Shown here: positions 24,301 through 51,478 of the stretch, piece by piece
Numbering within the stretch: the stretch's first letter is position 1
Layout of the letters: every line of letters starts with the position of its first letter
Assembly: GCA_900315705.1 (NCBI GenBank)
Contig: ONAB01000002.1
Location: 60,399 to 124,398, forward strand
Direction of reading: 5' to 3'
DNA: 64,000 bases
Origin: an uncultured Bacteroidales bacterium
GTDB lineage: Bacteria; Bacteroidota; Bacteroidia; Bacteroidales; WCHB1-69
Program-made: the position numbers and the translations under genes
Notes under the pieces: generated by a model
Databases searched by the model: none
Told to the model about the DNA's origin: nothing
What the model saw: the letters and a program-made list of their open reading frames with translations, nothing else

Positions 24301-24452
24301 GGATAGTTTATAGAAACGACATTTAATCCTTGAGTCAAGTTTTTCTTATTAAGATCCCAGATTGAATACAACAATTCGTATTCTTTGTCTTTATCAGATA
24401 AACATTTTAAATGCTTCTCTAAAGTATAATTATTGTCAGTAATATCTCCCAT
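21333..24452 (-). CDS. large HD-domain + GHKL (Hsp90/MORC-type) ATPase fusion protein
   Basis: HD motifs SLHDASHS, LTHDIGM, RLGDLLDFD in the N-terminal ~300 aa. GHKL motifs IREIVQNAFDA (N box), EDRGTGIS (G1), AFGIGLQSVF (G2) from about residue 390. AT-rich; lies 45 nt downstream of the type IIG gene. Confidence 0.7.
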   Translation of the reverse strand: MGDITDNNYTLEKHLKCLSDKDKEYELLYSIWDLNKKNLTQGLNVVSINYPNFSLHDASHSYSIIDNIQSFLGTERIKCLGATDTFLLLMASLTHDIGMILTYKMIEKEWAKSDFEKMLENISNSDDIVVSDAAKLIMRFYKEKPDKCNDYDGFKWALEIKNAVVIITAELFRNKHAKLSAEYLKTDTDFKKLAENYHADQLPNRFVDLLANVAYLHGQSFDEVMSQLYFKADGFKRDYIHPRFIACMVRLGDLLDFDSNRFNLYANASLKEMPEISKVHQLKHASVKHKLVSPTAIEAELDCPDEKVYRVSRSWFDWLEKEVNNQSREWTNIVPEEIGGLPPVISKDSIKILYNGIQAKPELLNLRFTMSQKKMFEIIQGGGIYKEPGFAFIREIVQNAFDASKLQMWTDICSGFYDSYFVEQSKRIEDVIFPDDIMPMIYNQYPVKLSIKWKDKEKNVLCFECEDRGTGISEATLLRMTQHVGESHSKDPDYNSVYQSMPYWLKPTAAFGIGLQSVFFVAPTFEVETSYPGEKSKRIIFRSAAENQYSSIVEENIERKRGTTVKVEVPKERFSELFGTTFSWDVLGKVDVFKGEGDDVYLAKIDEFVLNTFRGIEYYVFQYEPENPERKFSLINKTNDCATAYLSGDYKVACGFQDDYLLFKISEKKYGSAFTIWFDKELSNYHLPQRLFLRDVLVSNAKFNYFLTAHSGFEWNLHNQTTDKIVDLSRDNLTYNGRRWISDTLLNILFPDFIRIIGNIFKEMYKKRGNKKHDLDAQYLNYCLTAMACRIDSCESSVLEKIKLPSNIISYNNKEINAKKFFESSSLYLVGGFKTNGYNTIIPEEQQRIEEEFGSLLKNKVALWGDDFLGVALMFNFMCTEIIEYNNRCSIYKLDSDDSKSYRPNLVTCGKETEYLLKLEQLDYYHGSRSAIFGLKQYSTIVVKRNYISGFEHFPNYSNCYIYSPFSKKGQVDDLLNSTINMKDDEIRNYIRSKLGEYITPYMIHVVKRDNINDNVTEDQIKEGYISLISDFITLKRNY

Positions 24453-24497
24453 AATATGTATATGTTTTTTTTATAATGTTCGTAATTATAAGCTTTT

Positions 24498-27479: not shown

Positions 27480-27521
27480 AATTCAAATTTTTCTATCTAA
27501 TATTCATTCCAGTTCCTTCGG

Positions 27522-27529
27522 CAAAACTA
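27522..27529 (-). promoter_or_regulatory. candidate -7 box (reverse complement TAGTTTTG)
   Basis: 43 nt upstream of ATG 27479. Confidence 0.4.
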
Positions 27530-27645
27530 TTTTTTCACCCCTTCAAACACCCCTCTGGTGCCACATAAATGCCATTTTGGGCTGTCAGGAGCATCATTTT
27601 GCTTTATTCAAATCTGTTTTAATTCTGATTGGTTCATATTGCAAC

Positions 27646-29673: not shown

Positions 29674-29734
29674 AATCTGCAAATTTATGAATTAAAACTT
29701 TCCGAGATGATGATCTCAGGATAAATTCAAAACG

Positions 29735-35546: not shown

Positions 35547-35936
35547 TTAAGACTGCAGCTTCGCCATAAACTTCGCGCTCTCCACCACAAACCGTTCGTG
35601 GATGCCTTCGCCGACGAGTGTTTCTCCTTCGAAGCATTTCACAGAGAAGACCAGACGGCGGCGATCGACTTCGGTGAGTTCGGCCTCGCAGCGGATGGTC
35701 GCGCCCACAGGACTGGCTTTCAAGTGCTTGATATTGACGGCGATGCCTACGGTAGTGTTGCCGTCACCGATTTTGTCGCACACGGCCATCAGGCAGGTTT
35801 TCTCCATCAGGGCGATCATCGCGGGGGTGGCGAACACCTCCAATGCGCCGGAGCCATAGACCGCGGCGGTGTCTTTGTGCTCCACCACAAGTTGCTCGCT
35901 GTGGCGGAGACCGGTAAGGTTGTTAAATTCGGTCAT
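35547..35936 (-). CDS. hotdog-fold thioesterase family protein
   Basis: Start set at ATG 35936 (MTEFNNLTGLRHSEQLVVEHKDTAAVYGSGALEVFATPAMIALME...). Resembles FlK-like small thioesterases as I recall them. Confidence 0.7.
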   Translation of the reverse strand: MTEFNNLTGLRHSEQLVVEHKDTAAVYGSGALEVFATPAMIALMEKTCLMAVCDKIGDGNTTVGIAVNIKHLKASPVGATIRCEAELTEVDRRRLVFSVKCFEGETLVGEGIHERFVVESAKFMAKLQS

Positions 35937-35955
35937 AACAAGGTATTTTGGGATG

Positions 35956-36080: not shown

Positions 36081-36944
36081 TTACCGCGTAATTTGATCTG
36101 AAGTTTTCTTCAACCTAGGACAATCATTCAAATTCTTTTTGAAATTCCTTTGCGGAAAACCTCGCATAGAATACCATCCTTCAGTCGTTTTATATGCGAC
36201 ATTCACACTTGCTGAATGCGACAACATTCGAATCAGATACTTGTAAGGCATAAGCAAAGTCTTAACGCCTCCTGCCGCACTTGAAGAATCGACAAACACC
36301 TCATCTTCATATAAAACATCCACCACAGTGTATGTACTGTCATAGAAAGCGATTTGAACACTGTCCATTTTGTAATCTTGGAAGTTGGTGATTACGAAAC
36401 TGGCAAGAGGATCTTCACCATCCTTATCTATGGTAAGAATCATATTGGCAAAGTGCCACGGGGTTTGCCAGGGGTCTGGGGTAATCGTGTAGCACATAAG
36501 TTCCACATCTGTCGAGTACACGGTTTGCCAATCCATTAGGCGACTGATCGACTCGCTTGAACAATCGCATTGTAGAATCCGTTCATCCCTTGGCGCTTGT
36601 GCCCAAAAGTTATCCGCCGTGGCCCGCATCATCAGGGTAAACTCAAACGCAGAGTCATTGGCAATGACCTCAGCCATTCGGTCTATCATTCGGCACACCT
36701 GATCCGCATGGGCTTCGACAGCTTGGGTGCTATCTTCCAGAAAATAATAGACGGAATCTATCAAATTGATAAGCGAGAGCCGTTGGCTGTCGTTGATTTC
36801 ATAATCCGCTGCCCAACTCCGCAGGAAATCCGGCCAGCGAACCGCCTCGGTTTCTTCAGTTGCTTTTTTTGCGGTGCTGCAAGAGGAGAGCGCGAAGAGG
36901 CAGAGGGCGAGAATTGCGAATTGTATGTACTTCAGGTGTTTCAT
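36081..36944 (-). CDS. lipoprotein of unknown function
   Basis: Start set at ATG 36944 (MKHLKYIQFAILALCLFALSSC lipobox). No family recognised. Confidence 0.55.
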   Translation of the reverse strand: MKHLKYIQFAILALCLFALSSCSTAKKATEETEAVRWPDFLRSWAADYEINDSQRLSLINLIDSVYYFLEDSTQAVEAHADQVCRMIDRMAEVIANDSAFEFTLMMRATADNFWAQAPRDERILQCDCSSESISRLMDWQTVYSTDVELMCYTITPDPWQTPWHFANMILTIDKDGEDPLASFVITNFQDYKMDSVQIAFYDSTYTVVDVLYEDEVFVDSSSAAGGVKTLLMPYKYLIRMLSHSASVNVAYKTTEGWYSMRGFPQRNFKKNLNDCPRLKKTSDQITR

Positions 36945-37232
36945 TGTTATTATTTGTTTTATTTTTCTGAATATATCGGCATCTTTTCCTGGTGTTTTGA
37001 AAAAATCGGCGATGCTTATTTTGGAATTTCGGGTGCGAAACATGAATGAATGATGGTCATTATCAAGAAAACGACTTTGTTTGTTTTACTTGGCGTGTCC
37101 TGATTGTTCGTTTCTTTATAGTTGTTCATACTGCTTTGAGATAGGCGTTAAAATAATTTGTTATCTCTCCCAGTAAGTCATCGGTTTGTCCTTGACATCT
37201 CCTTTTTCATTTTTCGACGGGGAAGTAGATTC

Positions 37233-37433
37233 CTATGCCTTTGATGGGTGATGATCGATTTTTTCATTTTCCCCCGCCGGTTCATGTTTTTTTTCCTTTT
37301 TCTTCCCAAAATAAATTAGAACAATGCCTAACGCCAGCCAAAACAAAGGGCCAAAAACACTGTGTCCGGCGGCAAGACCACCGATAAAAGCGAGACCGCC
37401 TATTGCCGTAAAAATATAGCCTGCAATTTTCAT
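37233..37433 (-). CDS. small membrane protein (66 aa)
   Basis: Two hydrophobic helices and a Lys/Glu-rich tail. Lies 3 nt after the stop of the upstream small ORF. Confidence 0.4.
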   Translation of the reverse strand: MKIAGYIFTAIGGLAFIGGLAAGHSVFGPLFWLALGIVLIYFGKKKEKKHEPAGENEKIDHHPSKA

Positions 37434-37436
37434 AAT

Positions 37437-37625
37437 CTATTCCTCCATTTTTTCAGGTTCAACATTATCAATTTTCTTTGAACAAAGCACTGCGATCAAA
37501 CCGATGACGACATTGAGTAGCGAGATGGCGAATGCCAGTCCAAAACCTATTTTCCGAGTGCGACCCAAACAGCCGATGCCATATGCGAGACTTACCGCGA
37601 TTACTAATAAAATGATCTTTTCCAT
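37437..37625 (-). CDS. small membrane protein (62 aa)
   Basis: Two hydrophobic helices. Directly preceded by conserved cassette A. Confidence 0.4.
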   Translation of the reverse strand: MEKIILLVIAVSLAYGIGCLGRTRKIGFGLAFAISLLNVVIGLIAVLCSKKIDNVEPEKMEE

Positions 37626-37636
37626 TATTTGTTTAT

Positions 37637-37704
37637 TTTATTTGTTACATCTCTTTATGACAAATTACCGCCAAAGGTTAACAAGCCAACAGATTTATTT
37701 TTCG
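37637..37704. repeat. 68-bp leader/promoter-like cassette, copy A
   Basis: About 90% identical to 38251-38318. Its minus strand still reads ...RKINLLAC-stop, a relic of the helicase gene 3' end. Confidence 0.8.
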
Positions 37705-37792
37705 GTGTCCATTGCTTGAAAATTTGATTATCATTGCCTAGTCTATATTACAGTTTTCAGCTTCCCTGCGTAAAAAAGCGTGATGTTGTTTC

Positions 37793-38077
37793 CTATTTTA
37801 GGTAATTGCAAGCCAACACAATAGATGAAACAACCCACAAGAATGTAAACAGTAAGCAAATTATTCTCGTTCTTTTCCTTATTCTGCTCATCTTTTCACT
37901 TTCTTCGGTCAACTGTTTGTTTTCTTCCTCTAATAAATTGATTTTTTCTTTAAGTCTCATTTCAACATCATCTTTTCTAAGTATGATATTGACGAGTTCT
38001 GTTTTTGTCTTGTCTAAAAGCGCCATATCTTGTTCGTTTTTATTGTGTGATTCTTGTTTCATTATTGCCAACCTCAA
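37793..38077 (-). CDS. coiled-coil protein with C-terminal TM anchor (94 aa)
   Basis: Lys/Glu-rich heptad-like region (LKEKINLLEEENKQLTEESEKM) followed by IICLLFTFLWVVSSIVLAC. Confidence 0.4.
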   Translation of the reverse strand: MRLAIMKQESHNKNEQDMALLDKTKTELVNIILRKDDVEMRLKEKINLLEEENKQLTEESEKMSRIRKRTRIICLLFTFLWVVSSIVLACNYLK

Positions 38078-38240
38078 TTCTCTCTTTGTATTTCATTCTT
38101 CGCCGGATAGCCAGTATGATCATTGGCCATGCGATGATAGTACACAGGATGTCCATCACCCAACTGGCGACACTTTCATTGAATTCTACATTGGAGTTGA
38201 ATTCGGCAATTTCTTCAGGGGTCATTTTTTCTTTTTTCAT
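38040..38240 (-). CDS. small membrane protein (66 aa)
   Basis: One clear TM helix (VMDILCTIIAWPMIILAI). Preceded by cassette B and overlaps the next ORF by 38 nt. Confidence 0.4.
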   Translation of the reverse strand: MKKEKMTPEEIAEFNSNVEFNESVASWVMDILCTIIAWPMIILAIRRRMKYKERIEVGNNETRITQ

Positions 38241-38250
38241 TTTATTCTTT

Positions 38251-38318
38251 TTTATTTGTTATACCTCTTTATGACAAATCACCTCCAAAGGTTAACAAGC
38301 CGACAAATTTATTTTTCG
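38251..38318. repeat. 68-bp leader/promoter-like cassette, copy B
   Basis: tttatttgttatacctctttatgacaaatcacctccaaaggttaacaagccgacaaatttatttttcg. Includes the last 8 codons and the stop of the helicase gene. Confidence 0.8.
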
Positions 38319-40358
38319 AATTTTTGAAGAAAACGATTTGAACACAGAATCCTCTTTGACAGAGTCTTTTAATATTGTCATGAAATCAGCTTCAGACACG
38401 GCCATATCATTAAATGCAACAACCAGTTTGTTCTCTTCCTCATCTTCTTTCACCTCAATGGTTACATTGTTGGCCATGGCTACTTTGCGGATTATCCGAT
38501 ATGCCGGGAGATACTTGGGCACCATTTTGATCAGGTGCAAACACGTATCAACATTCGGATTGCCAAGTTGCTCATTGAGTTCTGCTTCGAACAAGTATTG
38601 TTTCTTATCAACAACTATTCTGTCATCCGATTTTTCACCGGCAGAACGAATCAATTTGGCTATTTCCATAGCCTCTTCAAAGCGGTTCAGTCCCTGCAGG
38701 GCTTTCCCTTTGATGAACATGGCTTCGAGACAGGCGCGGCGGTCAAGCACCATGTCTGCATAGCCGATGGCCTCCTCCAGACGATCGCCATACAAACAAA
38801 CAACTGCATTGAGAAAATTACACGTCATGCTGCAATCCTTCAGCAAGGCAACATCTTTTGTTAAATCTTTCAGGCATTTGTCGTCGAGCATTATGTCAAA
38901 CATCTTTTTCGCCAGCAATGCCGCATTGCGGTAATCTCCTGCTTTCATTTTCTCCAACGACCATTGCAAGCATTCCTTGGCGGCACTGTCATAATCCTTG
39001 TCTTGGATATGTTTGTAAAGTAAACGGCCATGGTTTAGTTCATCATCAATCAAAAGAATGTCGTTGAACGAATTGGCAAAAGCTTTGATCTCTGTGTTTT
39101 GCAAAATATGATTGTGACGAATCTTGTTGCTGAGGGTTAGACCGTCAAGGCTCCGCATACGGCTTATCGCCACGTAAGCCTGACCGGGCGCAAAGGTCCC
39201 ACGAGTAAGGTCGAAGTGCATGCGATCAAAGGTCATGCCTTGCGACTTGTGGATGGTGATGGCCCAAGCAAGCTTCAACGGATATTGGGTAAACGACCCT
39301 GTAATTTCTGTTTCCACTTGCTTGGTCTCTTTGTTATACTCGCTTTCGCGTTTTTCCCACCTCATCTTTTCAACATTGATCTCATTGCCGTTTTCCAACG
39401 CCACCTTGATGTTATCATCGCTTAATTCAACAACCTTGGCTATGGTTCCATTTACTAAACCTTGGCCAAAGTCGTTGCGGCAGAATATCACCTGTGCTCC
39501 GACTTTCAGCCGCAACTCCATCGGAACGGGCGTGTCCTGAATGCGAAAATTACCATCAATATCTCCTTTATAGCAGAACTCTTCCGAATCAATATCGTCC
39601 AACTTCTTTTCGTTGATGCCATCGGCCAATTTAACACGAGCGGTTAAAATGACTGCAAAATCTCCAACCGTATCGTTCGTGCTCACTTGCTGATTCAGTA
39701 TGTCCAAATCCTCATTCGTGTTTTCGCCCAAACGCATCCTGTCAAGTATGTCCAAAAATCGCAAATCCTTTTGTCGATACACCTTTTGGAACTCAATCTT
39801 GGGCAGATTCATCCGCTTTATCACATTGGACTTATAGAAGTACGGGGTGCCACTCCCGTACATATCGCACAACATTTCATAATCAGCCGAACCGTACTTC
39901 ACCACGGGCGGCAACTGAAACAGGTCGCCAACGAAAACCACCTGTTTTCCGCCAAATGGCGAATGCGTTTCCTCTAGCGAGCGCAGGAAGCGGTCGATAC
40001 TGTCCACCCAATCGCAACGCACCATTGAGGCCTCATCGATAATAATTGTGTCTGTGTATTTTAGCACATCTCTTTTTTCTCTTGAGACTTCTAATTTCGT
40101 GCCAGACCCAATGGCTTCAAACGGCAAACCAAAGAAAGAGTGAATCGTTTGTCCTCCCACATTCATTGCGGCGATGCCAGTAGGAGCCAGCACCAAGAAG
40201 TTCTTCTTGATGAGCTTCTGAATACCTTTAATAAATGTGGTCTTACCGGTACCAGCCTTACCTGTTACAAAGAGACTGGTATTGATGTTTGCTACAAGGT
40301 CGAAAGCCTTCTGCTGCTCGACATTTTCTGGATCAATCTTGAATTCTACTTTCTCCAT
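38292..40358 (-). CDS. Pif1/RecD-like SF1 helicase with C-terminal TPR-like extension
   Basis: Walker A VTGKAGTGKTT, IIIDEASMV, VFVGDLFQLPPV, ITIHKSQGMTFD, YVAISRMRS. About 230 extra C-terminal helical residues. Confidence 0.85.
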   Translation of the reverse strand: MEKVEFKIDPENVEQQKAFDLVANINTSLFVTGKAGTGKTTFIKGIQKLIKKNFLVLAPTGIAAMNVGGQTIHSFFGLPFEAIGSGTKLEVSREKRDVLKYTDTIIIDEASMVRCDWVDSIDRFLRSLEETHSPFGGKQVVFVGDLFQLPPVVKYGSADYEMLCDMYGSGTPYFYKSNVIKRMNLPKIEFQKVYRQKDLRFLDILDRMRLGENTNEDLDILNQQVSTNDTVGDFAVILTARVKLADGINEKKLDDIDSEEFCYKGDIDGNFRIQDTPVPMELRLKVGAQVIFCRNDFGQGLVNGTIAKVVELSDDNIKVALENGNEINVEKMRWEKRESEYNKETKQVETEITGSFTQYPLKLAWAITIHKSQGMTFDRMHFDLTRGTFAPGQAYVAISRMRSLDGLTLSNKIRHNHILQNTEIKAFANSFNDILLIDDELNHGRLLYKHIQDKDYDSAAKECLQWSLEKMKAGDYRNAALLAKKMFDIMLDDKCLKDLTKDVALLKDCSMTCNFLNAVVCLYGDRLEEAIGYADMVLDRRACLEAMFIKGKALQGLNRFEEAMEIAKLIRSAGEKSDDRIVVDKKQYLFEAELNEQLGNPNVDTCLHLIKMVPKYLPAYRIIRKVAMANNVTIEVKEDEEENKLVVAFNDMAVSEADFMTILKDSVKEDSVFKSFSSKIRKINLSAC

Positions 40359-40387
40359 AAAGCTAACCTATTTGCTTGTTTCTGTTG

Positions 40388-40420
40388 CTTTATGACAGAA
40401 ACAAGCAAAAGGTTAACAAG
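40388..40420. repeat. short copy C of the cassette core
   Basis: ctttatgaca-N10-aaaggttaacaag is shared with copies A and B. It lies 30 nt upstream of the helicase ATG. Confidence 0.6.
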
Positions 40421-40440: not shown

Positions 40441-40761
40441 CTAAATCATAAAACTGTATGTTGCTTTGGACACCAATCTTTCATTGATTGACTCTTTAGA
40501 ATAAACATAATGCCTTTTTATGCTCCCAAAAGACACAGGAACATGTCCATCCCAAGTGATCCTATTACATAGTTCAAAAATAATTTGATCCATGTCGCTT
40601 TGGGACATCAGATGTTTTAATATAACATCACATGAAACATCTTTTCCTCTATCAATGTTGTCATGCACTATTTCTTCATAATTATTCAAGGTCAGATTTT
40701 TTGAATTCTCTACAGCTTGAGGATCAACAACAAAATTCACTTCTACAAAAACATTTTTCAT
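40441..40761 (-). CDS. hypothetical protein (106 aa)
   Basis: AT-rich ORF, no family recognised. A candidate -7 box lies at 40888-40895. Confidence 0.4.
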   Translation of the reverse strand: MKNVFVEVNFVVDPQAVENSKNLTLNNYEEIVHDNIDRGKDVSCDVILKHLMSQSDMDQIIFELCNRITWDGHVPVSFGSIKRHYVYSKESINERLVSKATYSFMI

Positions 40762-40940: not shown

Positions 40941-43900
40941 CTAATCCAGCAAAACAAATGAAGCCCAATAAGTTGCGTCAGGATATCTCTCTTTCATAGT
41001 GAGAACAGTGCTGACGTAGGCATCATGTTTTGAATATCCTTCAACCAGTTTTTCATAGAACAAACTCATATACTCCGATGTTGCTTTATCGTCTATCTGC
41101 CAAAGACTCATTAAGATAGAGGAAACGCCAGCCTTTTTGAAAGCGCGTTGTAAGCCGAAAATTCCATCAAAAAGGTCATCTCCAACTCCAGTCTCACAAG
41201 CAGAAAGAACAACAAGATTTACATTGTGTAAGTCAAGTTTAGAGATTTCGTATGCCGTAAGTATGTCATCATTATTATCTGGCTTAAAAGTAGAATCATT
41301 CCAGGCCTTTTGACCTCCTGAAAGAATTAAGCCAGAATAGAAAAGTTCATCTTGAATGTTTTCTGTATTTTCACTTTTAGCGAAGTAGGGAATGGCACTC
41401 CTCCGCGATTGAGGAATATAATAACCATGGGTAGCAACGTGAATAATGTTGGCTTGTGTTCCGTCAAGCTGCTTGAAGGCACTTTCGGTGGCATGTGGTC
41501 CAGTATATGTAACAATATCTACCCCACTGCCTTTCAACAACTTTTCAATTCGGTTCACTTCCAACAATGTGTTCTGTAAGTACGCCCAATTGCCTCTTGT
41601 GCTTATGCTACGCATCATATCAGCATATTCTTGAGTGTTTTCAAAATCAACACCGCCAAATGATGCTACAATATGGATGTCTCTATTTTCATACTTTTTT
41701 ATAATATTTCTTGTAGAGGAGACTCTGTACAAGTTGAAACGTTCAGCCGCAGTTTTACCAGTGCTGTCTGCCAAAAGTTCGATGTTGATAAGATTAAGTA
41801 ATCCCATAGGAGAGAAAAACACTCTGTCTTTCCCTTCAATATACCGCTGCACTTTACCCCATATTTTGGAGTATAATATTTGGCCTATTTCTGTATCATA
41901 CGATTTGGGTTGTAATTCATACATTCCCGAAAGATCATCTTCGTCAAATAAATCCACAAAAACGGGGGCTTTGCCATTAGGTAGAAGAACCATAGCGGAG
42001 TAATGCGGTTTAGGCACACTATCGCACCACGAATATGAATTGGCGGTGTACTTCACGAATTCAACACATGCTTCATCTTTATTCAGTTTATTCGCTACAT
42101 CCTTCCAATGAACATTGGTGAATTCTTCATTTACTTCTTTCAAAATCTCACGTTCTTTTAATTCGTATCGATACAAAGCCAATACTCTGGCATTGTCATC
42201 AGAAATAGCATAGATGCTATCGCGCATCTTGTCCAATTCGAGTTTAGCACTCACCATTTCAGGATGATTATCAAAATACGGAGAAAGAACATTGTAACGC
42301 AACGTCAGACCTTTCATAAGCAAGGCCGCATCGTATGCGATGCTAACACTAACACTATCTGTCGGATTCCATGATGCCCATTCTGGAATATGGTACAAGT
42401 TAAATTCCCCATTTCCCAAATATGTATCAGATTCCACAGAGCCTAAAACAGGTAACATACGATTTAATTCTACCTCCATGCCATAATAATAGCAAGGTAA
42501 ATATGCATGAATTGCAGTTGTATCATGTAATAGCGAAGACTTTAAGGCAACATTGAAATAACGATAGTAAGTATCTGGAAAATATTTCAACGCTTTAATC
42601 GAATACTCATAAGATTTTTCTCGCTGACCTAATCTAGAATAATGCTTTGCCCAATTTTCATTCAAATTGCCAAGGGTGATATTCTTTAGATTGTATTTTT
42701 CATAGTATTCTTTATTGGCAATCAAAATGCTGTCAATTTTATTAAAATACATTTCAGCTGTATCACGATAGTTGTTAACAGTGTCCATTAGCATTGAGTA
42801 TGCCTTGCCGACAATTAAATAGTAATTTGCATTTCCTCCTTCTGACTTTCTAATTCTATCCAAATTCCTGTTCTGAACAATCACTTCATTTGGGTTTGAA
42901 TCAGCAATGTAACCAAAATACATAGTCCAATCAGTCAACGAGACACTCCCTTCTATTTCTTCTCTAATCTTTATTTCTTCAAGCTTAAGTTTTGCAGCCA
43001 TTTCTGCTTGATTTGTGTTATAGTACACATTTGCTAATGCGTTCAGAATATCACAAGATTCCATATTGTTTGCAAGATTAAAGACGTAAGGATATGCCTT
43101 GTCGCAGTATTGTTTGCACAAGGGCATATTTCCCAATTGGTAGTAATTATCAGCAATTCTTGCATAACAAGAGGCAATCTTTCCAATTATCATGTCGTCA
43201 TCAATTCCAACAGAAGACAACGCTGCTATTTCTTTATTATACAGTTCGATCGCTCCCAATAAATCATGTTTCTGGGCACTGACCGCACCTGCAAATAAAT
43301 ATAATAAATCTGCATACCCCAAATCATATTCAAGTATTTCTATTTTGTGTAAACTAGTATCCAAGTTATGGATATACGAATGGTTCTTCCTGTACCAGCT
43401 CTCAATTTCGTCAATCCTATTGTGTACAAAAGCATGATTGTCAAAGCTGTTGTACATTCTATTCGTGTTGAAGCATTGGTTGAACCACAAATATTGTTTA
43501 AGATTGGCCGAAGTAACTTCTTGCTGTTTTATCACATCCATCGCGTCTTGGAGACAATAGACCGAATCTGCCCACGGCATAATGGTACATCCTCCCAATG
43601 TGCTTGCAATTAGATTAGTATAGAAAGGAAGCTCTTCGGGGTTATATAGTTTTATTACTTTTGAAAGTTCAATATATGTACCAATGGCATCGGTTGTAAG
43701 ATTTAAATCTCTTTGCAACACGAATACCATTCCGTAGTTGTTGTACATGTCTTTAAGAGTAATCCCATAGCTAACAAAAGCATCTATGTGTTGCTCAATC
43801 AATTCACAATTCTTAATTTGACATTCAAGTGCGCTTTCAAGATTACCTTTAGCGTGCTCTTGGTTTGCAAAAGTAACTAGCAGCCATGATGCAGAATCAT

Positions 43901-44018
43901 ACTTTGTTTGTTCTGCATACATGTTCACAAGTCTATCAACATCTACCTTTTTTAGATCCTGTGCTGACACTGACAGACAGAATCCTGCAAATATGAATAT
44001 AAAAAATGTTTTTCTCAT
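40941..44018 (-). CDS. exported TPR-repeat CHAT-domain protease
   Basis: Signal peptide MRKTFFIFIFAGFCLSVSAQ. About 700 aa of TPR-like helical repeats. C-terminal CHAT dyad context IIHVATHGYY (His) and LVVLSACETGVGD (Cys). Confidence 0.85.
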   Translation of the reverse strand: MRKTFFIFIFAGFCLSVSAQDLKKVDVDRLVNMYAEQTKYDSASWLLVTFANQEHAKGNLESALECQIKNCELIEQHIDAFVSYGITLKDMYNNYGMVFVLQRDLNLTTDAIGTYIELSKVIKLYNPEELPFYTNLIASTLGGCTIMPWADSVYCLQDAMDVIKQQEVTSANLKQYLWFNQCFNTNRMYNSFDNHAFVHNRIDEIESWYRKNHSYIHNLDTSLHKIEILEYDLGYADLLYLFAGAVSAQKHDLLGAIELYNKEIAALSSVGIDDDMIIGKIASCYARIADNYYQLGNMPLCKQYCDKAYPYVFNLANNMESCDILNALANVYYNTNQAEMAAKLKLEEIKIREEIEGSVSLTDWTMYFGYIADSNPNEVIVQNRNLDRIRKSEGGNANYYLIVGKAYSMLMDTVNNYRDTAEMYFNKIDSILIANKEYYEKYNLKNITLGNLNENWAKHYSRLGQREKSYEYSIKALKYFPDTYYRYFNVALKSSLLHDTTAIHAYLPCYYYGMEVELNRMLPVLGSVESDTYLGNGEFNLYHIPEWASWNPTDSVSVSIAYDAALLMKGLTLRYNVLSPYFDNHPEMVSAKLELDKMRDSIYAISDDNARVLALYRYELKEREILKEVNEEFTNVHWKDVANKLNKDEACVEFVKYTANSYSWCDSVPKPHYSAMVLLPNGKAPVFVDLFDEDDLSGMYELQPKSYDTEIGQILYSKIWGKVQRYIEGKDRVFFSPMGLLNLINIELLADSTGKTAAERFNLYRVSSTRNIIKKYENRDIHIVASFGGVDFENTQEYADMMRSISTRGNWAYLQNTLLEVNRIEKLLKGSGVDIVTYTGPHATESAFKQLDGTQANIIHVATHGYYIPQSRRSAIPYFAKSENTENIQDELFYSGLILSGGQKAWNDSTFKPDNNDDILTAYEISKLDLHNVNLVVLSACETGVGDDLFDGIFGLQRAFKKAGVSSILMSLWQIDDKATSEYMSLFYEKLVEGYSKHDAYVSTVLTMKERYPDATYWASFVLLD

Positions 44019-44019
44019 G

Positions 44020-44679
44020 CTATAGCTTTTTCAACAAAGTTGAAACTTCATCACCTATCGCCGTTCCTTCCGGATACATTGTTTGCAACTGCTCCAAAAC
44101 AACCTTTGCTTCTTTCTTGTCATAGTTCCGCAAATGTGCAATAGCAAGATTCCATCCTATGTAAGGTTCATACGTTGTATAGCCATTATATTTATCACTT
44201 TGTGCCAACGCCCATAATTCTTCAAGTTGTTTAATCGTATTATCCAAATCTTTTCCGTTGGCAACATTGTCGAACAATAAAGTTAGAGTGTTTACCACCT
44301 CCTCTTCTTCTTCCCCTCGAATAACTTCAGAAACGGGGAAGGCATACGCATATTCTTTCCCAAGTCTGGTTGTGGCAGAGTAATCATAAACAAAGTAACT
44401 GACAGTGAAAACAAGTGCGATACTGGCCGCAATAGATATCCATCGCAACGAAGAGGTCTTTTTTCCAGACGAGGCCTTCATCTTTTCCAACAGTTGTTTG
44501 TCATGCTCTTTGCCAACAACCTCCATCCCTTTAACGATTCTTGCCATTGATTCAGCTTGTTGTTTTAGGGTGTTATCTTTTGGGAGGTCAGCTTCAAATA
44601 CAGATTCCTCCCCAGGGGACATTTCTCCATGAAGATATCGGTTTATTCTTTCCTCATTATTATATAGTTGGTCGTCCAT
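44020..44679 (-). CDS. single-pass anti-sigma-like protein with C-terminal TPR-like domain
   Basis: N-terminal INRYLHGEMSPGEESVFEADL segment, TM helix WISIAASIALVFTVSYFVY, about 110-aa C-terminal helical domain. Lies 16 nt after the sigma gene and 1 nt before the CHAT gene. Confidence 0.55.
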   Translation of the reverse strand: MDDQLYNNEERINRYLHGEMSPGEESVFEADLPKDNTLKQQAESMARIVKGMEVVGKEHDKQLLEKMKASSGKKTSSLRWISIAASIALVFTVSYFVYDYSATTRLGKEYAYAFPVSEVIRGEEEEEVVNTLTLLFDNVANGKDLDNTIKQLEELWALAQSDKYNGYTTYEPYIGWNLAIAHLRNYDKKEAKVVLEQLQTMYPEGTAIGDEVSTLLKKL

Positions 44680-44695
44680 AATCTTGTGGTTGTTT

Positions 44696-45286
44696 TTACA
44701 TTTTAGCTAATATATTCTCATAACTCTTGCGGAATTTCTCCTGGCAGCGGTGTTTGGTCACTTTGGCAACGCTATCGCTGGCATAGCCGAACATCTGTGC
44801 TATCGCTTTCATTGATAGAACATCACGGAAGAAGGACCATAGCAGTTCATTGCACGGGGATGGCAAACTTTTGACCAGCTCCTGAACAATACTGTTTCGC
44901 TCGGCATCCGCTTTCTCATTGGATTCGATCATGTTTAGGATCTTGTCTGCCTTATTCAAGATAATGTTGTATCGTTCTTCGCCATCTTCGCTGGAGAAAG
45001 CATCTATTGACGACAATTGCATCTTGTCATTTTTCCGTAATTGCTCGTGAGCCTTGTTGTTGCAGATTCCAATGAAATAGGTGTACAACGAAGAGGAAAG
45101 GTTGTCCAATTTTCCGTCAACAGCAGCATGATATAGTATAATAGAAGCGTCCTGAAATACATCTTCACAATCCTCTCTGCTTAACGAGAAAGTATTGCGA
45201 AGATAGGAGAGCGTACGTTCTCGGTACTCTCTCGCAAAGTCGTTTAAGACTTTATCACGTTTCTTGTTTAATGATATGATTGGCAT
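44696..45286 (-). CDS. ECF-type sigma-70 family RNA polymerase sigma factor
   Basis: Region 2 EDVFQDASIILYHAAV...LYTYFIGICNNKAHEQLRK. Region 4 VLSMKAIAQMFGYASDSVAKVTKHRCQEKFRKS. Confidence 0.8.
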   Translation of the reverse strand: MPIISLNKKRDKVLNDFAREYRERTLSYLRNTFSLSREDCEDVFQDASIILYHAAVDGKLDNLSSSLYTYFIGICNNKAHEQLRKNDKMQLSSIDAFSSEDGEERYNIILNKADKILNMIESNEKADAERNSIVQELVKSLPSPCNELLWSFFRDVLSMKAIAQMFGYASDSVAKVTKHRCQEKFRKSYENILAKM

Positions 45287-45288
45287 GA

Positions 45289-46173
45289 TTATTGTGAACT
45301 TTCAGTTACCATGTGTTGTCTTACTAATCGGTTGTCCTTGTCCATATTTTTCCTCACATTTTCTATCCATTTAGTGTCGAATGATAGGGGTGAGGTTAAC
45401 AACTGCTGGCTGATATAATAAGACATAGGACCGTAATACTTACCATTTTGTTTGATTTCGGTATTCACCTCGTATGCTCTACAAGCCTCCAGCACATACA
45501 TAGGTGACATGCCCTTTTCAGATGCAATCTGAATATTCCCGCGTTTATCTATTGGTGGAGCATACGTTTTACCATTCTTGCTGAATCCAATATCTGTACC
45601 ACGAACATAGACACTGTCATCTTCCTCTTCGCCACGATATGAAGAACCTGCATGACAAGCATCCATCACCACATAAAGAATACCTTTCTCGCCGACCTTC
45701 TTTCTAATAGAATTCAAGTGACTGTTCAACTCGTCATCCAGCAAATGGTTCTCTCCTTGATACACACCCTTCTTGTAGCGATGTTGAGCGTCGTATGGAA
45801 TAAACGCCTCGTCCCAACCATCCGCTTCATCACCATTCTCATCCTCAACAGCTTGGCCGTGACCAGACAAGTGGATGTAAACGATATCTCCAGGACGCAC
45901 ACTGTTTTCCAGCTTTTTAAAGCCGTTTTCTATACCCTTATGAGTGGCCAAATTGTCTGTCAATGTTATAATTTTGAACCCCTGTTTTGCCAACAATGGA
46001 GAGATCAACTGCACATCATTGGTGCCATGTATTTTAGTCCACGAATCATCCGCATCTTTGTATTGGGGATAGTTGGATATTCCAATCAGCAAAGCATGCT
46101 TTTGCTGTGCAAAGAGAGGTGTTTGCAAAATCAAAATTGCCAAAAGGGTTATAATAAATTTTGTATTACGCAT
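45289..46173 (-). CDS. exported caspase-family (peptidase C14) protein
   Basis: Signal peptide MRNTKFIITLLAILILQTPLFAQ. HALLIGISNYP, His context YIHLSGHGQ, Cys context VVMDACHAGS. ATG 46173 is preferred over the TTG at 46179. Confidence 0.85.
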   Translation of the reverse strand: MRNTKFIITLLAILILQTPLFAQQKHALLIGISNYPQYKDADDSWTKIHGTNDVQLISPLLAKQGFKIITLTDNLATHKGIENGFKKLENSVRPGDIVYIHLSGHGQAVEDENGDEADGWDEAFIPYDAQHRYKKGVYQGENHLLDDELNSHLNSIRKKVGEKGILYVVMDACHAGSSYRGEEEDDSVYVRGTDIGFSKNGKTYAPPIDKRGNIQIASEKGMSPMYVLEACRAYEVNTEIKQNGKYYGPMSYYISQQLLTSPLSFDTKWIENVRKNMDKDNRLVRQHMVTESSQ

Positions 46174-46180
46174 AAGCAAT

Positions 46181-46285
46181 CTATTTTCGTTCTTTATCTT
46201 TCCTCTGTTCCAACTCTCTCACCCTACGCTCCACCATCAGCTGCTCGCTGTGGCGGAGACCATTCAAGTTATCGAATTCATTCAT
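46181..46285 (-). pseudogene. diverged 5' fragment of a thioesterase gene (34-codon ORF)
   Basis: MNEFDNLNGLRHSEQLMVE matches MTEFNNLTGLRHSEQLVVE of 35547-35936 and then diverges into RRVRELEQRKDKERK-stop. It ends 8 nt before the caspase ATG. Confidence 0.6.
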
Positions 46286-46354
46286 ACTATATTATTTTGA
46301 CTATTGACTATGTTTATTGCCTGTTGCCTATTGGCAGAAGTAATTGCTTAACCA

Positions 46355-46708
46355 TCAATCAAAAAACGTCCAGAAGTAAAACCAAATAATAATAAATACC
46401 AAAGCAAGGAGAATGTAGCATGCCGATATTAAAAGAGTGCTGATTTTCTTGAACTTAAACTCATGGATCATATTCCAAAGATTCAAAGGAAATCCCAAGA
46501 ATATCATCACCAGAAAATTGAAAAATCCAAACACAAAACAAAAATCGAACATGGGCAGAGAAAAGTATGGAACTTCTCCAATGAGCATATTCCCGTACAT
46601 GCGATATGCCCGCACGAGGGTGAGGAGAAAGGATATATACCACACCATCATCAAAACCCAGGTGATGACCATCAGGACTTTCAGAATAACGCGTAAAGTG
46701 TTGTTCAT
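46355..46708 (-). CDS. small multi-pass membrane protein
   Basis: 117-aa AT-rich ORF with four hydrophobic segments. Confidence 0.45.
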   Translation of the reverse strand: MNNTLRVILKVLMVITWVLMMVWYISFLLTLVRAYRMYGNMLIGEVPYFSLPMFDFCFVFGFFNFLVMIFLGFPLNLWNMIHEFKFKKISTLLISACYILLALVFIIIWFYFWTFFD

Positions 46709-48003: not shown

Positions 48004-49128
48004 TTATGCCTCTTTGACTTCGCACAGAAGCAGGTCGCTGCAGTTCGACCGAACCTCTTCGAAAATCTCCCGGCATCGTTGCGCGCTCATTCTGTTTTTT
48101 GTTCCCACTTCCACCATGTCGTTCAAGGTAGGATGGCCTGTGCCGTTGACGGAAGTGGCGTGTTCGCCGTTATAACCCTCCGTGCAGAGCGTCAAGTCGT
48201 ATGCGGGAGCAAGATGCCAAGTATATTGTCCTTTTCTGACTTCCGAAACCATGAAACTGAAATTCTTGCAGTGGTCGTCCTTGTTGTCAGTCAGATAGTT
48301 AAAAACCATTCGACGGAACATCTCTTCCACCTCTTTGGCATTTTGGGTGAGGAAGCCTGTCAGCGCAAGAAGGTTGGTGTAGTCGAGAAACGGTGTGTTC
48401 AACGATAGGCACAGCAATCCGCCTGCCGTGACGGTATGGATGCGCTTGCCGTTGGGCGCAATGTCGAAGCGACGTGTTGTAAAATAGCGACCGTTGGTTA
48501 GCTTGCAATCGGGAACATCAATGCCGCATTGTTTGGCCACCTCGTTATAGTGGAACTCCTGCCGCCCGACATCGACAGGGTCGTAATAGTGACGGAACTT
48601 TATAAGCCAATGTCCCTCACTATCGCTGAAAACGGCCTTGGGACGTGCCCCTCCGCTATTTCCACTTTTGTAAAGAAGCAATCCGGCATCGGTGTCTTGT
48701 TGTTCTTTCAACACCTCCAATGCTTTCTGTTGAAGCAAGTCAAAATCAGTTATGTTGTTTTCTTTAACAACCACTGTTTCAGGATGGTAGGTTAAAGCAC
48801 CCATGCCACTGTTGCCCACGATGCTCAATCGGTCAAGGGCGGAAAGGTCGGTGTCGTTGATGCCTTCACGCAGCAAGGCCTTGTGAAGCAGGTAGCGGCC
48901 GTAGCCATCGGGAAGACTGTCTTCGAAGATGCCAAAATTACCATGAAAAGGCTGGGGGTTGGCAATAAATAAGCCCTTTTTTAACGGGAGTTCGAGGGGC
49001 GAAATGCTGAACCCGTCAGCCAGCCATGTTCGGTCATACTCAAAGGCACAGAGACGGTCGTCGGGGGTGAGGGAAAGCGTCCCGACGATATTATCGTGAT
49101 AATTGATGGTTAATTTGTCGATTTTCAT
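48004..49128 (-). CDS. hipA: HipA-family serine/threonine kinase toxin
   Basis: N-terminal coupling-domain-like MKIDKLTINYHDNIVGTLS. Kinase core with SGNSGGARPKAV and catalytic-loop NKDDHCKNFSF. Confidence 0.8.
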   Translation of the reverse strand: MKIDKLTINYHDNIVGTLSLTPDDRLCAFEYDRTWLADGFSISPLELPLKKGLFIANPQPFHGNFGIFEDSLPDGYGRYLLHKALLREGINDTDLSALDRLSIVGNSGMGALTYHPETVVVKENNITDFDLLQQKALEVLKEQQDTDAGLLLYKSGNSGGARPKAVFSDSEGHWLIKFRHYYDPVDVGRQEFHYNEVAKQCGIDVPDCKLTNGRYFTTRRFDIAPNGKRIHTVTAGGLLCLSLNTPFLDYTNLLALTGFLTQNAKEVEEMFRRMVFNYLTDNKDDHCKNFSFMVSEVRKGQYTWHLAPAYDLTLCTEGYNGEHATSVNGTGHPTLNDMVEVGTKNRMSAQRCREIFEEVRSNCSDLLLCEVKEA

Positions 49129-49469
49129 TTCCTATACGCTTTTGTCTTGCCGGAATTATGTCGTATTTGCGTCAGTTCTTCCATAGTTGAGTATTTTGGG
49201 GTGGCGAAAACGCTTTTGATTTCAGCGGCGTAGCCCAATGCCATTGCCAGCATGATCAGGTTTTTCAGTGAGATGAGACCTTTTTGTTCGAACCGTGCCA
49301 CGTTGCTCACAGCGACACTGGCTTGCTCGGCCACTTGCTCGCGTGTCAAACCCTTCTCCACCCTGCGGTGGCGGAAATCAGCCGCTATCTGCATGCTGAT
49401 GGCGTCGGCATTATCGTGCAAATAGCCCTCAAGAACTGACAATATATTGTCTGTATTGTTTGTATTCAT
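49125..49469 (-). CDS. hipB: XRE-family HTH antitoxin (HipB-like)
   Basis: HTH LTREQVAEQASVAVSNVARFEQKG. Its stop overlaps the hipA start by 4 nt. Confidence 0.7.
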   Translation of the reverse strand: MNTNNTDNILSVLEGYLHDNADAISMQIAADFRHRRVEKGLTREQVAEQASVAVSNVARFEQKGLISLKNLIMLAMALGYAAEIKSVFATPKYSTMEELTQIRHNSGKTKAYRK

Positions 49470-50044: not shown

Positions 50045-51340
50045 TCAATCGGTGAAGCAGACGCTTGCACCATATAGCGGCATATTGGTCATCCGTTCCT
50101 GTTCGCGGTAAGGACTCATCGAAAAACGGATGGCTGTTAAATCTTTATGTTTTTGCAAAATGGTCTTCAAGGATTTCGATTGAAGATTTTCCTCAGCCTT
50201 CACTTCAACAGGCACAATCTGCGTGCCGTATTGAACAACGAAATCAATCTCGAGACGACTATTTTCGCGACTGTAGTAGAAAGGCAACCTTCCTGTTCCC
50301 GCCACTAATTGAGTACATACATAGTTTTCCGTAAACATACCTTTCCCTTCCCCCATATTGTTGGGCATCAGAAGCAGTTCGGCAGGAGTGCCGGCCAAGG
50401 CGCCTAACAGTCCAACATCCAAAAGGTACAATTTGAATGTGGAAATATCCTCGTACAGGTTCAAGGGCATCGCAGGGGTGGACACACGTGGTACACGGAG
50501 GACTAACCCAGCATCAACAAGCCATTGTATGGCAAGCTCGAAATCCTTGGCGCGCCCTCCTTCACGCACGACACCATAGATGAATTTTTTGTTTTCCTTG
50601 GAAAGTTGTGATGGCATGGATCGCCAAACCTGCGAAATCCTCTTTATTTCAGTGGGAGTGGTGTGTTTTGCCATATCGCTGGCGTATGCGGATAGTATTT
50701 CGTCCTGTGCCTTTCTAACGATATTGGCATCGTTTGTTTCTCTGAAAAGGGAAACCACACCAGGCATTCCCCCAACAAAATAATATTCGCGCAAAAGTTG
50801 AATCAATACAGTATGTATTCCTCGGAGAGTGTCCCAATCCCTTTTTCGCAAGAGATCAACTAAAAGATCTTTTCCTTTGGCTCTCAAAAACTCATCAAAA
50901 GTCATCGGATACATTTTAATGATGTTCACTTTGCCGACGGGAAATGACTCCCCGTGTCGCATCGTGACCCCTAACAAGGAACCTGCAACGCATACATGCT
51001 GTTCTGGTGCATTTTCGCAGAAATACTTGAGAGAAGAGAGACCTCGCTGCAGTTCCTGCACTTCATCGAGGATAATCAACGTTTCTCCAGGTATGATGGT
51101 CTCTCCCGTTATTGCGCTGATACTGAGCAAAATTCGATCTATGGCATAATCCTCTGTGAACAAATCCTTTACACGCTCGTTATGGTCGCAGTTGATATAT
51201 GCTACATTTTTATAGAAAGATTGTCCAAAGTACTTTAATATATACGTTTTGCCTACCTGTCGTGCACCCAACAGAAGCAAGGGCTTCCTATATGGTGACA
51301 TTTTCCAATTGATCAGCTCATTAATAACATTTCTATACAT
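50045..51340 (-). CDS. AAA ATPase with DUF4143-type C-terminal domain
   Basis: Walker A GARQVGKTY, Walker B LIILDEVQ, C-terminal LEIDFVVQYGTQIVPVEVK. Start set at ATG 51340 (MYRNVINEL), 22 nt after a -7 box. Confidence 0.8.
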   Translation of the reverse strand: MYRNVINELINWKMSPYRKPLLLLGARQVGKTYILKYFGQSFYKNVAYINCDHNERVKDLFTEDYAIDRILLSISAITGETIIPGETLIILDEVQELQRGLSSLKYFCENAPEQHVCVAGSLLGVTMRHGESFPVGKVNIIKMYPMTFDEFLRAKGKDLLVDLLRKRDWDTLRGIHTVLIQLLREYYFVGGMPGVVSLFRETNDANIVRKAQDEILSAYASDMAKHTTPTEIKRISQVWRSMPSQLSKENKKFIYGVVREGGRAKDFELAIQWLVDAGLVLRVPRVSTPAMPLNLYEDISTFKLYLLDVGLLGALAGTPAELLLMPNNMGEGKGMFTENYVCTQLVAGTGRLPFYYSRENSRLEIDFVVQYGTQIVPVEVKAEENLQSKSLKTILQKHKDLTAIRFSMSPYREQERMTNMPLYGASVCFTD

Positions 51341-51361
51341 ACTGATGATTTTATCCAGCTG

Positions 51362-51369
51362 CAAAAATA
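51362..51369 (-). promoter_or_regulatory. candidate -7 box (reverse complement TATTTTTG)
   Basis: 22 nt upstream of ATG 51340. Confidence 0.5.
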
Positions 51370-51478
51370 CAAAAAAATGAGCGACTATCTTAAAATATAA
51401 CACATTTTTATGAGTGACTTTCTTGTTAAAAACACAATTTTATGTAATATGCTGAATAGTAATTAAATACAACATAAT

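Follow-up and report, generated by a model that had tools for sequence, protein, structure and literature searches.

The window analysed here is a 64,000-nucleotide (nt) stretch of contig ONAB01000002.1 from an uncultured Bacteroidales bacterium (GenBank assembly GCA_900315705.1, positions 60,399 to 124,398 of the forward strand). It carries on its minus strand four closely packed genes for a predicted exported C14 caspase, a sigma factor of the extracytoplasmic function (ECF) type, a single-pass anti-sigma-like protein and a predicted exported TPR-CHAT protease. The reading that we favour, by a modest degree of confidence, is that the TPR-CHAT protein and the caspase stand on the input side of a sigma/anti-sigma switch whose sigma factor targets motif-preceded genes of the same genomic island, including one for a Pif1-like helicase. 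A specific order of events, in which the TPR-CHAT protein senses a cue and activates the caspase and the caspase cuts the anti-sigma at an Arg-Gly pair, is proposed only tentatively; its models are the SAVED-CHAT to PCaspase cascade and the way in which the four genes co-evolve.

The open reading frames (ORFs) for the caspase, sigma factor, anti-sigma-like protein and CHAT protein are separated by 2, 16 and 1 nt. This tight four-gene layout agrees in its coordinates with the first-pass annotation of the window, and every motif quoted there (YIHLSGHG, VMDACHAGS, HVATHGYY, and VLSACETG) was found in the ORFs. The leading gene (45289-46179, minus strand) encodes a C14 caspase/metacaspase-like protease of 296 amino acids (aa) from a TTG codon, the public gene call being 294 aa from an ATG two codons in. 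Its assignment to the caspases with a His/Cys dyad was borne out by a Peptidase_C14 (PF00656) match of 57.5 bits (2e-15, cut-off 21.4) and by alignment of SGHG and DACHAG with HYSGHG and DSCHSG of the yeast metacaspase, which puts H107 and C175 in register with the catalytic dyad. H107, C175, and D173 were invariant among 24 caspase homologues. D173 is the Asp two residues before the catalytic Cys, and C14B metacaspases with an Asp at this position show Arg/Lys-specific cleavage.

The N-termini of both proteases consist of a basic n-region and a hydrophobic core leading to an Ala-Gln (A-Q) junction, formed in the caspase by a signal peptide ending in PLFA and followed by QQ, and in the CHAT protein by one ending in SVSA and followed by QD. 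The A-Q junction is the usual signal peptidase I context in Bacteroidetes, with the mature N-terminal Gln cyclised. Signal-peptide-like N-termini ending in A-Q were present in every caspase and CHAT homologue inspected from subfamily 1, one of the two subfamilies of the module described below. In subfamily 2, signal peptides were found in 53 of 57 caspases and 50 of 63 CHAT proteins, and contig ends may account for some of the CHAT proteins without one. The export of both proteases, suggested at first from the window sequence, is predicted here because the signal-peptide pattern is conserved among the homologues of both subfamilies.

The second gene (44696-45286, minus strand, 196 aa) is an ECF-type sigma factor, as first proposed, with a match to TIGR02937 (sigma70-ECF) over residues 14-187 of 53.1 bits at a cut-off of 42.9; Pfam Sigma70_r2 alone reached 21.9 bits, under its cut-off of 24. 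The protein belongs neither to the Bacteroides Sig70_bacteroi1 family (TIGR02985, 32 bits versus a cut-off of 126) nor to the type III-E CASP-sigma family (NF041236, CAS_III-E_sigma, 29 bits versus a cut-off of 100).

The third gene (44020-44679, minus strand) encodes a protein of 219 aa with one transmembrane (TM) helix at about residues 80-100, leaving 75-80 residues on the cytoplasmic side (N-domain, about 1-75) and about 120 (121-128) outside. The cytoplasmic N-domain is helical in an AlphaFold2 (AF2) model. A linker of about 25 residues connects the membrane to the outer domain (residues 126-219), which forms a small helical bundle of TPR-like type and is a conserved fold in its own right; TPR/Fis1-type Pfam matches were obtained in members of the family. 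At 50% identity the family comprises 490 clusters, the best 150 listed of which span 70-428 aa, so that none of these 150 is fused to a TPR-CHAT part. We call the protein an anti-sigma factor because it is encoded 16 nt downstream of the sigma gene, would cross the membrane once, and has a helical N-terminus that co-evolves with the sigma factor (r = 0.89). The topology and TPR-like outer domain given in the first-pass annotation were recovered, and the anti-sigma identity given with them was not backed by any curated model. No match to zf-HC2 or RskA was detected in the window protein or in 58 family members, and a profile search of the PDB with the protein returned no anti-sigma structure. 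Fold and profile searches were set aside as a means of settling the identity; they gave weak TPR-like matches only (Fis1 and YbgF), which amount to neither proof nor disproof.

The linker of the anti-sigma-like protein contains Arg121-Gly122 (codons at 44314-44319, minus strand), about 20 residues outside the membrane. Among 58 family representatives with 25-61% identity to the window protein, the two residues were kept in at least 90%, and an R/K-G pair stands at the same position in the distant subfamily. In the AF2 model the pair is part of a coil that runs from the TM helix to the outer domain's first helix, and it is regarded as a candidate protease cleavage site. Separase, too, cuts after Arg (PMC11506125).

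The fourth gene (40941-44018, minus strand) encodes the TPR-CHAT protease of 1025 aa, with a CHAT domain at residues 710-1023 (nt 40950-41891) that matches PF12770 with 144 bits (7.9e-42, cut-off 24). The dyad residues H864 and C941 were invariant among 42 CHAT homologues. In the AF2 model (predicted local distance difference test, pLDDT, 87; predicted template modelling score, pTM, 0.83), an all-helical solenoid of about 620 residues precedes a domain with the caspase fold. The CHAT domain, dyad and signal peptide of the initial description thus held; its TPR repeats are seen as the solenoid of the model, and Pfam gave a single weak match, to TPR_12, in the 700-aa N-terminal part. The top Foldseek matches of the model in the PDB were Csx29 (8eey_B, 4e-11), the Myxococcus protein DdvA (second and third best, about 1e-10), and separase. 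A single-sequence PDB search with the CHAT protein gave no match, DdvA included, and a profile PDB search was swamped by generic TPR proteins and discarded, so the link to DdvA and Csx29 comes from the fold search alone.

Relatives of the anti-sigma-like protein, close and intermediate, were sought in species-representative genomes; an alignment of the 58 diverse representatives was too divergent as a seed for the genome scan, and narrower subsets worked. All four genes were found in 33 species-level loci of Prevotellaceae, Bacteroidaceae, Muribaculaceae, and other Bacteroidales, the majority of rumen and gut origin, and they were present wherever the contig extent allowed. The cultured carriers are Prevotella sp. 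MA2016 and P. lacticifex JCM 34664. The usual order was caspase, sigma, anti-sigma, and CHAT, and in Prevotella sp. MA2016 it was sigma, anti-sigma, an inserted gene, CHAT, and caspase. Subfamily 2, whose anti-sigma is only about 30% identical to that of the window, was recovered from rumen metagenomes; here 45 of the 51 loci of at least 6 kb had caspase, sigma, and anti-sigma in this order, accompanied on the opposite strand by one to three CHAT genes; in the other six, contig ends cut the locus. Co-occurrence across genomes, which the first-pass annotation had named as a test of its own proposal, was therefore observed in 33 species-level and 45 metagenome loci, rearrangements included. In total, about 80 loci in two deeply diverged Bacteroidales subfamilies and three gene arrangements keep the genes together, and persistence through three arrangements is strong evidence of shared function. 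Four module contigs (L001, L027, L100, and L109) came from bins labelled Lachnospiraceae, Bacillota, Bacillales, and Akkermansia and are, judged from their content, probably mis-binned Bacteroidales.

Co-evolution was analysed as the correlation of pairwise-identity matrices over the 33 loci. The matrices of the caspase, the sigma factor and both halves of the anti-sigma correlated with r = 0.77-0.89, the sigma factor and the anti-sigma N-terminus with r = 0.89 and the caspase and the anti-sigma outer domain with r = 0.81. The CHAT domain correlated with the other parts at r = 0.45-0.52 and had the lowest mean identity (0.36). By this comparison of sequences, the co-evolving core consists of caspase, sigma and anti-sigma, to which the TPR-CHAT protein is added as an exchangeable cassette, since r is 0.77-0.89 within the core versus 0.45-0.52 for CHAT. 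In some islands the first 540 residues of the mature CHAT protein were 31-42% identical to the window, and the caspase, sigma, anti-sigma, and CHAT domain of the same islands were 61-88% identical, with 62-88% for the CHAT domain by itself; in other islands the entire CHAT gene was of a different type. A variable receptor that feeds a conserved relay would be expected to leave such a pattern, which is also reminiscent of how immune sensors diversify. It further suggests the caspase, and not the CHAT protein, as the conserved partner of the anti-sigma outer domain.

Further variation was seen in the sensor genes of single loci. At L017 (10653-12062, Bacteroidaceae), the anti-sigma gene is followed by one for a separate exported TPR protein of 469 aa and then by a shorter CHAT gene (860 aa), an arrangement that may be a further split of the sensor. 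In six subfamily-2 loci from rumen metagenomes (L134, L135, L180, L182, L197, and L198), two or three tandem CHAT genes lie opposite the caspase-sigma-anti-sigma operon and look like an array of alternative sensors.

A candidate output of the module was indicated by a promoter-like motif. The bipartite element TGTTAACCTT-N12-GTCATAAA was invariant upstream of the gene for the Pif1-like helicase in 22 of 22 loci compared. It has the form of an ECF promoter, with an AAC-containing -35 and a GTC-containing -10 part, and its spacer falls within the range of 14-17 bp given for ECF promoters (PMC6061681). In the window, GTTAACC-N14-GTCATA occurred in three copies versus 0.07 expected, all inside the island and on the minus strand, which is the strand of the genes, and the extended GTCATAAA box of each copy ended 29-32 nt upstream of an ATG. 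Copy 1 (40391-40417, minus strand) is about 30 nt upstream of the Pif1 start codon. Copy 2 (38270-38296, minus strand; repeat families D1 and D3) precedes the gene for a 66-aa membrane protein, and copy 3 (37656-37682, minus strand) precedes two genes for two-TM proteins (37437-37625 and 37233-37433) and possibly serves a lipoprotein gene (36081-37043). The small two-TM protein family was also preceded by the motif in loci L002, L003, L056, and L080.

The helicase gene (38292-40358, minus strand) encodes a superfamily 1B (SF1B) protein of 688 aa with a PIF1 match of 8.3e-35 and a helical C-terminal extension of about 250 aa, and RecD-like helicase models were matched in PADLOC. The gene was linked to the module in most subfamily-1 loci, in L043 and L046 by a divergent upstream placement. 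With its conserved ECF-type promoter, the helicase is probably an output of the sigma factor. The first-pass annotation had placed the operon in an AT-rich accessory block next to a Pif1-like helicase; the low G+C content of the block was borne out (0.36-0.41 versus about 0.50 in the flanks), and the view of the helicase as a mere neighbour has to be given up. The other candidate outputs of the window, all on the minus strand, are ORF66 (38040-38240, the 66-aa membrane protein), ORF94 (37793-38077), the two-TM proteins ORF62 (37437-37625) and ORF66b (37233-37433), and the predicted lipoprotein; family scans of these small genes (36081-38240) gave no match. A further small ORF of 106 aa (40441-40761, minus strand), situated between the CHAT and Pif1 genes and present in part of the clade, had no family match either.

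In other islands, the motif preceded genes for Pif1-like helicases, a RecD-like helicase, a HAD/NIF-type phosphatase, a phosphoribosyltransferase (PRTase)-like protein, a membrane-anchored protein with a domain of the exonuclease VII (ExoVII) large subunit, and several families of small proteins, membrane-bound or secreted. When a strict 18-base motif was scanned over one genome per species (185,579 genomes), 62 matches were obtained; caspase, sigma, anti-sigma, CHAT, or Pif1 genes lay no more than 8 kb away from at least 31 of these, and about 15 were evidently due to chance in unrelated taxa. A variant, GTTACC-N15-GTATAAA, was found in 50 loci of subfamily 2, with a spacer of 15 in 57 of 66 sites and always directed outward from the module, one copy standing beside the caspase operon and pointing away from it and one beyond the CHAT gene. 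The genes behind this variant encode membrane-anchored proteins and secreted Tyr/Gly-repeat proteins. Secreted repeat proteins rich in Tyr, Gly, and Ser (unit ...TTNYYNQYGGSTGS..TTRSNYGGG) that belong to no known family were motif-preceded in both subfamilies (L125:9618, L166:12963, and L176:6223; L054 and L103 in subfamily 1).

The idea that the sigma operon regulates itself was considered and rejected, no copy of the motif being present upstream of the operon. In place of the ECF-type motif, a TAnnTTTG box preceded the protease/sigma operons at most loci as well as the separate CHAT genes. Boxes of this kind are characteristic of housekeeping promoters in Bacteroidetes. The picture suggested by these sequences is a constitutively made sensor with an inducible, island-local regulon. 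A scan for promoters and terminators of the Escherichia coli type was uninformative (29 sites versus 28 expected).

Directly before the Pif1 start codon, motif copy 1 forms the 5' arm of a near-perfect palindrome (40362-40417, minus strand) with a stem of about 23 bp and a predicted RNA fold of -34.1 kcal/mol (z = -7). The 3' arm was kept in the close clade only, and the inner stem was seemingly retained with altered sequence in distant loci. The palindrome was therefore rejected as the conserved element, only the 5' arm and the GTCATAAA box being kept in distant loci, and an Rfam search with it gave sub-threshold microRNA-like matches only. As a speculation, the hairpin might block read-through or translation of upstream transcripts and so make Pif1 expression dependent on the sigma factor.

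In the proposed mechanism, the four genes would be co-transcribed, in most genomes from a housekeeping-type Bacteroidetes promoter, and the membrane-spanning anti-sigma would hold the ECF sigma factor inactive. The TPR-CHAT protein, with its large and rapidly exchanged helical domain, would be the likely receptor of an extracytoplasmic cue, probably a protein, and the likely conserved relay would be the C14 caspase, which co-evolves with the sigma/anti-sigma pair. The outer part of the anti-sigma would be cut by one protease or by both, with the Arg-Gly pair about 20 residues beyond the membrane as the candidate site, and intramembrane and cytoplasmic proteases of the cell would then clear the remainder, following the classical pattern of regulated intramembrane proteolysis. 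The freed sigma factor would transcribe the island-local genes for the Pif1-like helicase and the small membrane proteins from GTTAACC-N14-GTCATA.

Several points weigh against this scheme or against the defence role considered below. The N-domain of the anti-sigma-like protein passed no curated anti-sigma model (17 bits to the LIMLP_03685 anti-sigma and to DUF3379), and its binding of the sigma factor, like any cleavage of it, is something we infer. The motif is taken to be the promoter of the island's sigma factor from its form and its co-occurrence with the module. The free exchange of the CHAT protein implies that a specific contact with the anti-sigma may be unneeded and that it could have another substrate. 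In the window itself, the DNA upstream of the caspase gene (46180-46354) is without the TAnnTTTG box usual at other loci, and the operon may be transcribed by read-through from a small membrane-protein gene (46355-46708). The site-1 role of the CHAT domain in DdvA, the nearest precedent, is a published hypothesis whose validation, according to its authors, awaits the inducing signal (PMC11506125). As to defence, no system defined in PADLOC was matched and the sigma, anti-sigma, and CHAT proteins had no match there, the caspase matching only the generic 'caspase' model (39.5 bits); no homologue or copy of the module was found in plasmid and phage collections; and most output proteins had no recognisable function in family scans. 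Together with the fact that the outputs of subfamily 2 are envelope proteins, not DNA enzymes, the last point makes the defence reading circumstantial.

The two proteases could also stand beside the switch and not ahead of it. The sigma/anti-sigma pair would then sense alone, for example envelope stress through the TPR-like outer domain, and the proteases would be co-expressed effectors with other substrates, possibly invader proteins, envelope proteins of the cell itself or pro-proteins. The evolutionary decoupling of CHAT would fit this, as would its placement on the opposite strand with its own housekeeping-type promoter in some loci, and the anti-sigma-like protein has in its outer domain a conserved fold of its own, whose cleavage by the proteases is presumed. 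We nevertheless consider such an arrangement unlikely. The caspase usually leads the sigma operon and co-evolves with the anti-sigma outer domain (r = 0.81), and neither protease gene is preceded by the ECF-type motif, which indicates that the proteases are not outputs of the sigma factor. The four-way co-occurrence through rearrangements is most simply explained by a single pathway, and in the DdvA, Csx29, and PCaspase relatives the proteases stand on the input side of a sigma factor.

A second alternative concerns the role of the module, not its mechanism, and so overlaps the other readings: the switch could be a housekeeping or physiological regulator of envelope remodelling, a surface coat or DNA maintenance that responds to a nutritional or host cue. 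The membrane-anchored and secreted repeat proteins among the outputs of subfamily 2 speak for it, as do the fixation of the island in every contig with the identical flanking thioesterase, the lack of a system-level match in PADLOC, and the failure to find phage or plasmid copies. It is nonetheless given a low probability. The island is low in G+C, bounded by repeats, and set in differing genomic contexts among genomes; islands differ in and exchange their hypervariable sensor domain, and up to three CHAT paralogues occur in tandem; and helicase, nuclease-like, and PRTase-like genes are among those behind the motif. In some lineages, AbiH and DUF2971 genes lie inside the operon, and the nearest characterised relative controls phage defence (PMC11506125). 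Fortuitous clustering of four unrelated genes in an accessory region can be dismissed, because the four genes are conserved in 33 species-level genomes and 45 metagenome loci, and with them go two subfamilies, three arrangements, gaps of 1-16 nt, and correlated evolution over about 80 loci.

For the input-side scheme, the most likely role would be a response to an external threat such as a phage or another invader, which we hold to be probable. Hints of a conflict role come from the nesting of foreign genes in the operon, the nucleic-acid enzymes behind the motif, the variable sensor cassettes, and the kinship with DdvA-DdvS. In Prevotella sp. MA2016, an AbiH abortive-infection gene (171 bits; L019:10696-11658) is nested between the anti-sigma and CHAT genes, and a DUF2971 gene takes the same position in P. 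lacticifex (L029:10677-11459), followed there by a gene with a weak match to a peptidoglycan-binding domain (21.9 bits, below the cut-off of 23). A more far-reaching version, which we regard as doubtful when taken as a whole, would see in the module the first bacterial caspase cascade outside the cytoplasm, encoded on an immune island that spread by horizontal transfer. Its hypervariable periplasmic TPR-CHAT protein would recognise an invader protein before DNA entry and activate the exported caspase, which would cut the anti-sigma after the conserved Arg, and the ECF sigma factor, once released, would switch on the Pif1-like helicase and membrane effectors through a promoter dedicated to them.

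The island itself measures 10.35 kb and is bracketed by two imperfect direct repeats of 72 nt (repeat family D2, strand not assigned) that share 76% identity and lie 10,349 bp apart. The right-hand copy (35879-35950) is the 5' end of a FlK-type thioesterase gene, and the left-hand copy (46228-46299) is a remnant of such a 5' end. The latter explains a 34-codon ORF reaching 46285, the limit up to which the feature had first been drawn; that limit was not upheld, as it takes in the thioesterase remnant and not caspase sequence. No integrase was found in the island. When an empty insertion site was sought by means of the flanking thioesterase, the contigs recovered all carried the island. In other genomes, the module was located in unrelated genomic contexts. 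The statement that the island lacks a CRISPR (clustered regularly interspaced short palindromic repeats) or cyclic-oligonucleotide sensor proved correct, family scans of the island proteins and of the other large ORFs of the window giving no match to cas, CD-NTase, or SAVED.

Elsewhere in the window, a second low-G+C block (21333-29682, minus strand) resembles a defence island and encodes an HD-CE domain protein (1039 aa), a restriction-modification enzyme of the MmeI/Eco57I type (993 aa), and a protein with Schlafen AlbA_2 and HATPase_c_4 domains (678 aa). A gene for a HipA-like kinase and an upstream helix-turn-helix (HTH; HipB-like) gene form a toxin-antitoxin pair at 48004-49469 (minus strand), which is adjoined by an AAA_14/DUF4143 ATPase gene (50045-51403).

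Little is understood of the ways in which bacteria detect extracytoplasmic threats, and DdvA is the one characterised anti-sigma with a periplasmic TPR-CHAT part. In the module described here, the receptor/protease, the second protease and the anti-sigma substrate are separate proteins, and each step is therefore testable in trans. The candidate Arg-Gly site, the promoter motif as a reporter, and the two cultured carriers offer handles, and members of the family are frequent among Bacteroidales of rumen and gut and fall into hundreds of sequence clusters. If the scheme is true, caspase-type proteolytic signalling, so far cytoplasmic in bacteria, would extend to the periplasm and would be linked to a Pif1-like helicase whose role would need explaining.

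Among known systems, full-text literature searches on ECF sigma and anti-sigma factors, CHAT, caspases, the periplasm, and phage defence brought up a single system of this kind, DdvA-DdvS. Apart from it, the relevant matches were cytoplasmic systems linked to CRISPR and a remark on ECF54, and none described this Bacteroidales module. The group ECF54 has CHAT-domain genes in its neighbourhood and is described as being without an anti-sigma (PMC8999054). The main text of the ECF reclassification paper, taken apart from its supplements, makes no mention of CHAT or caspase. The first-pass annotation had relied on the SAVED-CHAT to PCaspase cascade and on CalpL-CalpT-CalpS as precedents. These parallels in protease logic stand in part: the idea of a periplasmic CHAT domain performing site-1 cleavage had already been proposed for DdvA, and the type III-E Csx29-Csx30-CASP-sigma system is closer than CalpL-CalpT-CalpS.

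In type III-E Craspase, the TPR-CHAT protein Csx29 cleaves Csx30, which inhibits CASP-sigma, and relieves the inhibition (PMC10028731). The present locus shares with it a TPR-CHAT protein, for which Csx29 was the best structural match, a sigma inhibitor (here putative), and motifs for presumed sigma binding within the locus. Unlike that system, which is cytoplasmic and RNA-guided by Cas7-11, it has no cas genes, and its inhibitor is a membrane protein unrelated to Csx30. In a type III-B/CBASS (cyclic oligonucleotide-based antiphage signalling system) hybrid, SAVED-CHAT activates PCaspase (bioRxiv 10.1101/2023.06.23.546230). There, too, the genes for a CHAT protease and a caspase-like protease stand side by side; that pair is cytoplasmic and triggered by cyclic oligoadenylate by way of a SAVED domain, whereas both proteases of the present module have signal peptides and no SAVED domain was detected in it. 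With RseA/DegS/RseP and RsiW/PrsW, the module has in common the logic of a single-pass anti-sigma, an extracytoplasmic site-1 cut (proposed here), and release of the sigma factor, but its site-1 candidates are cysteine proteases of the caspase fold and not serine proteases or metalloproteases.

The closest comparison is with DdvA, a transmembrane anti-sigma of Myxococcus xanthus whose periplasmic part is a TPR-CHAT domain, and its partner ECF sigma factor DdvS, which drives a CBASS/CRISPR-Cas defence island from four promoters (PMC11506125; PMC6061681). Its authors propose that a signal makes the CHAT domain cut the juxtamembrane linker in trans, as the site-1 step before RseP (PMC11506125). 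In both systems, an ECF sigma factor and a single-pass anti-sigma (here putative) are encoded side by side, an extracytoplasmic (here predicted) TPR-CHAT part has an intact dyad, and several copies of a sigma-type promoter, here a motif read from sequence, precede adjacent genes. Unlike in DdvA, the TPR-CHAT part of the present module is a separate, predicted secreted protein with its own signal peptide. The anti-sigma has a small TPR-like outer domain of its own (at most 428 aa in the 150 listed representatives of its family), its N-domain is without the CHCC zinc motif and without a zf-HC2 match, and a second exported protease, the C14 caspase, is obligatory and co-evolving. The operon is apparently not autoregulated, its candidate outputs are a Pif1-like helicase and small envelope proteins instead of CBASS or CRISPR-Cas genes, and its host is a member of the Bacteroidales. 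With its TPR-CHAT protein unfused and CRISPR and SAVED parts absent, the module is not a member of the DdvA, Craspase or SAVED-CHAT systems, and the locus is best described as a split design of the DdvA-DdvS type with an extra protease.

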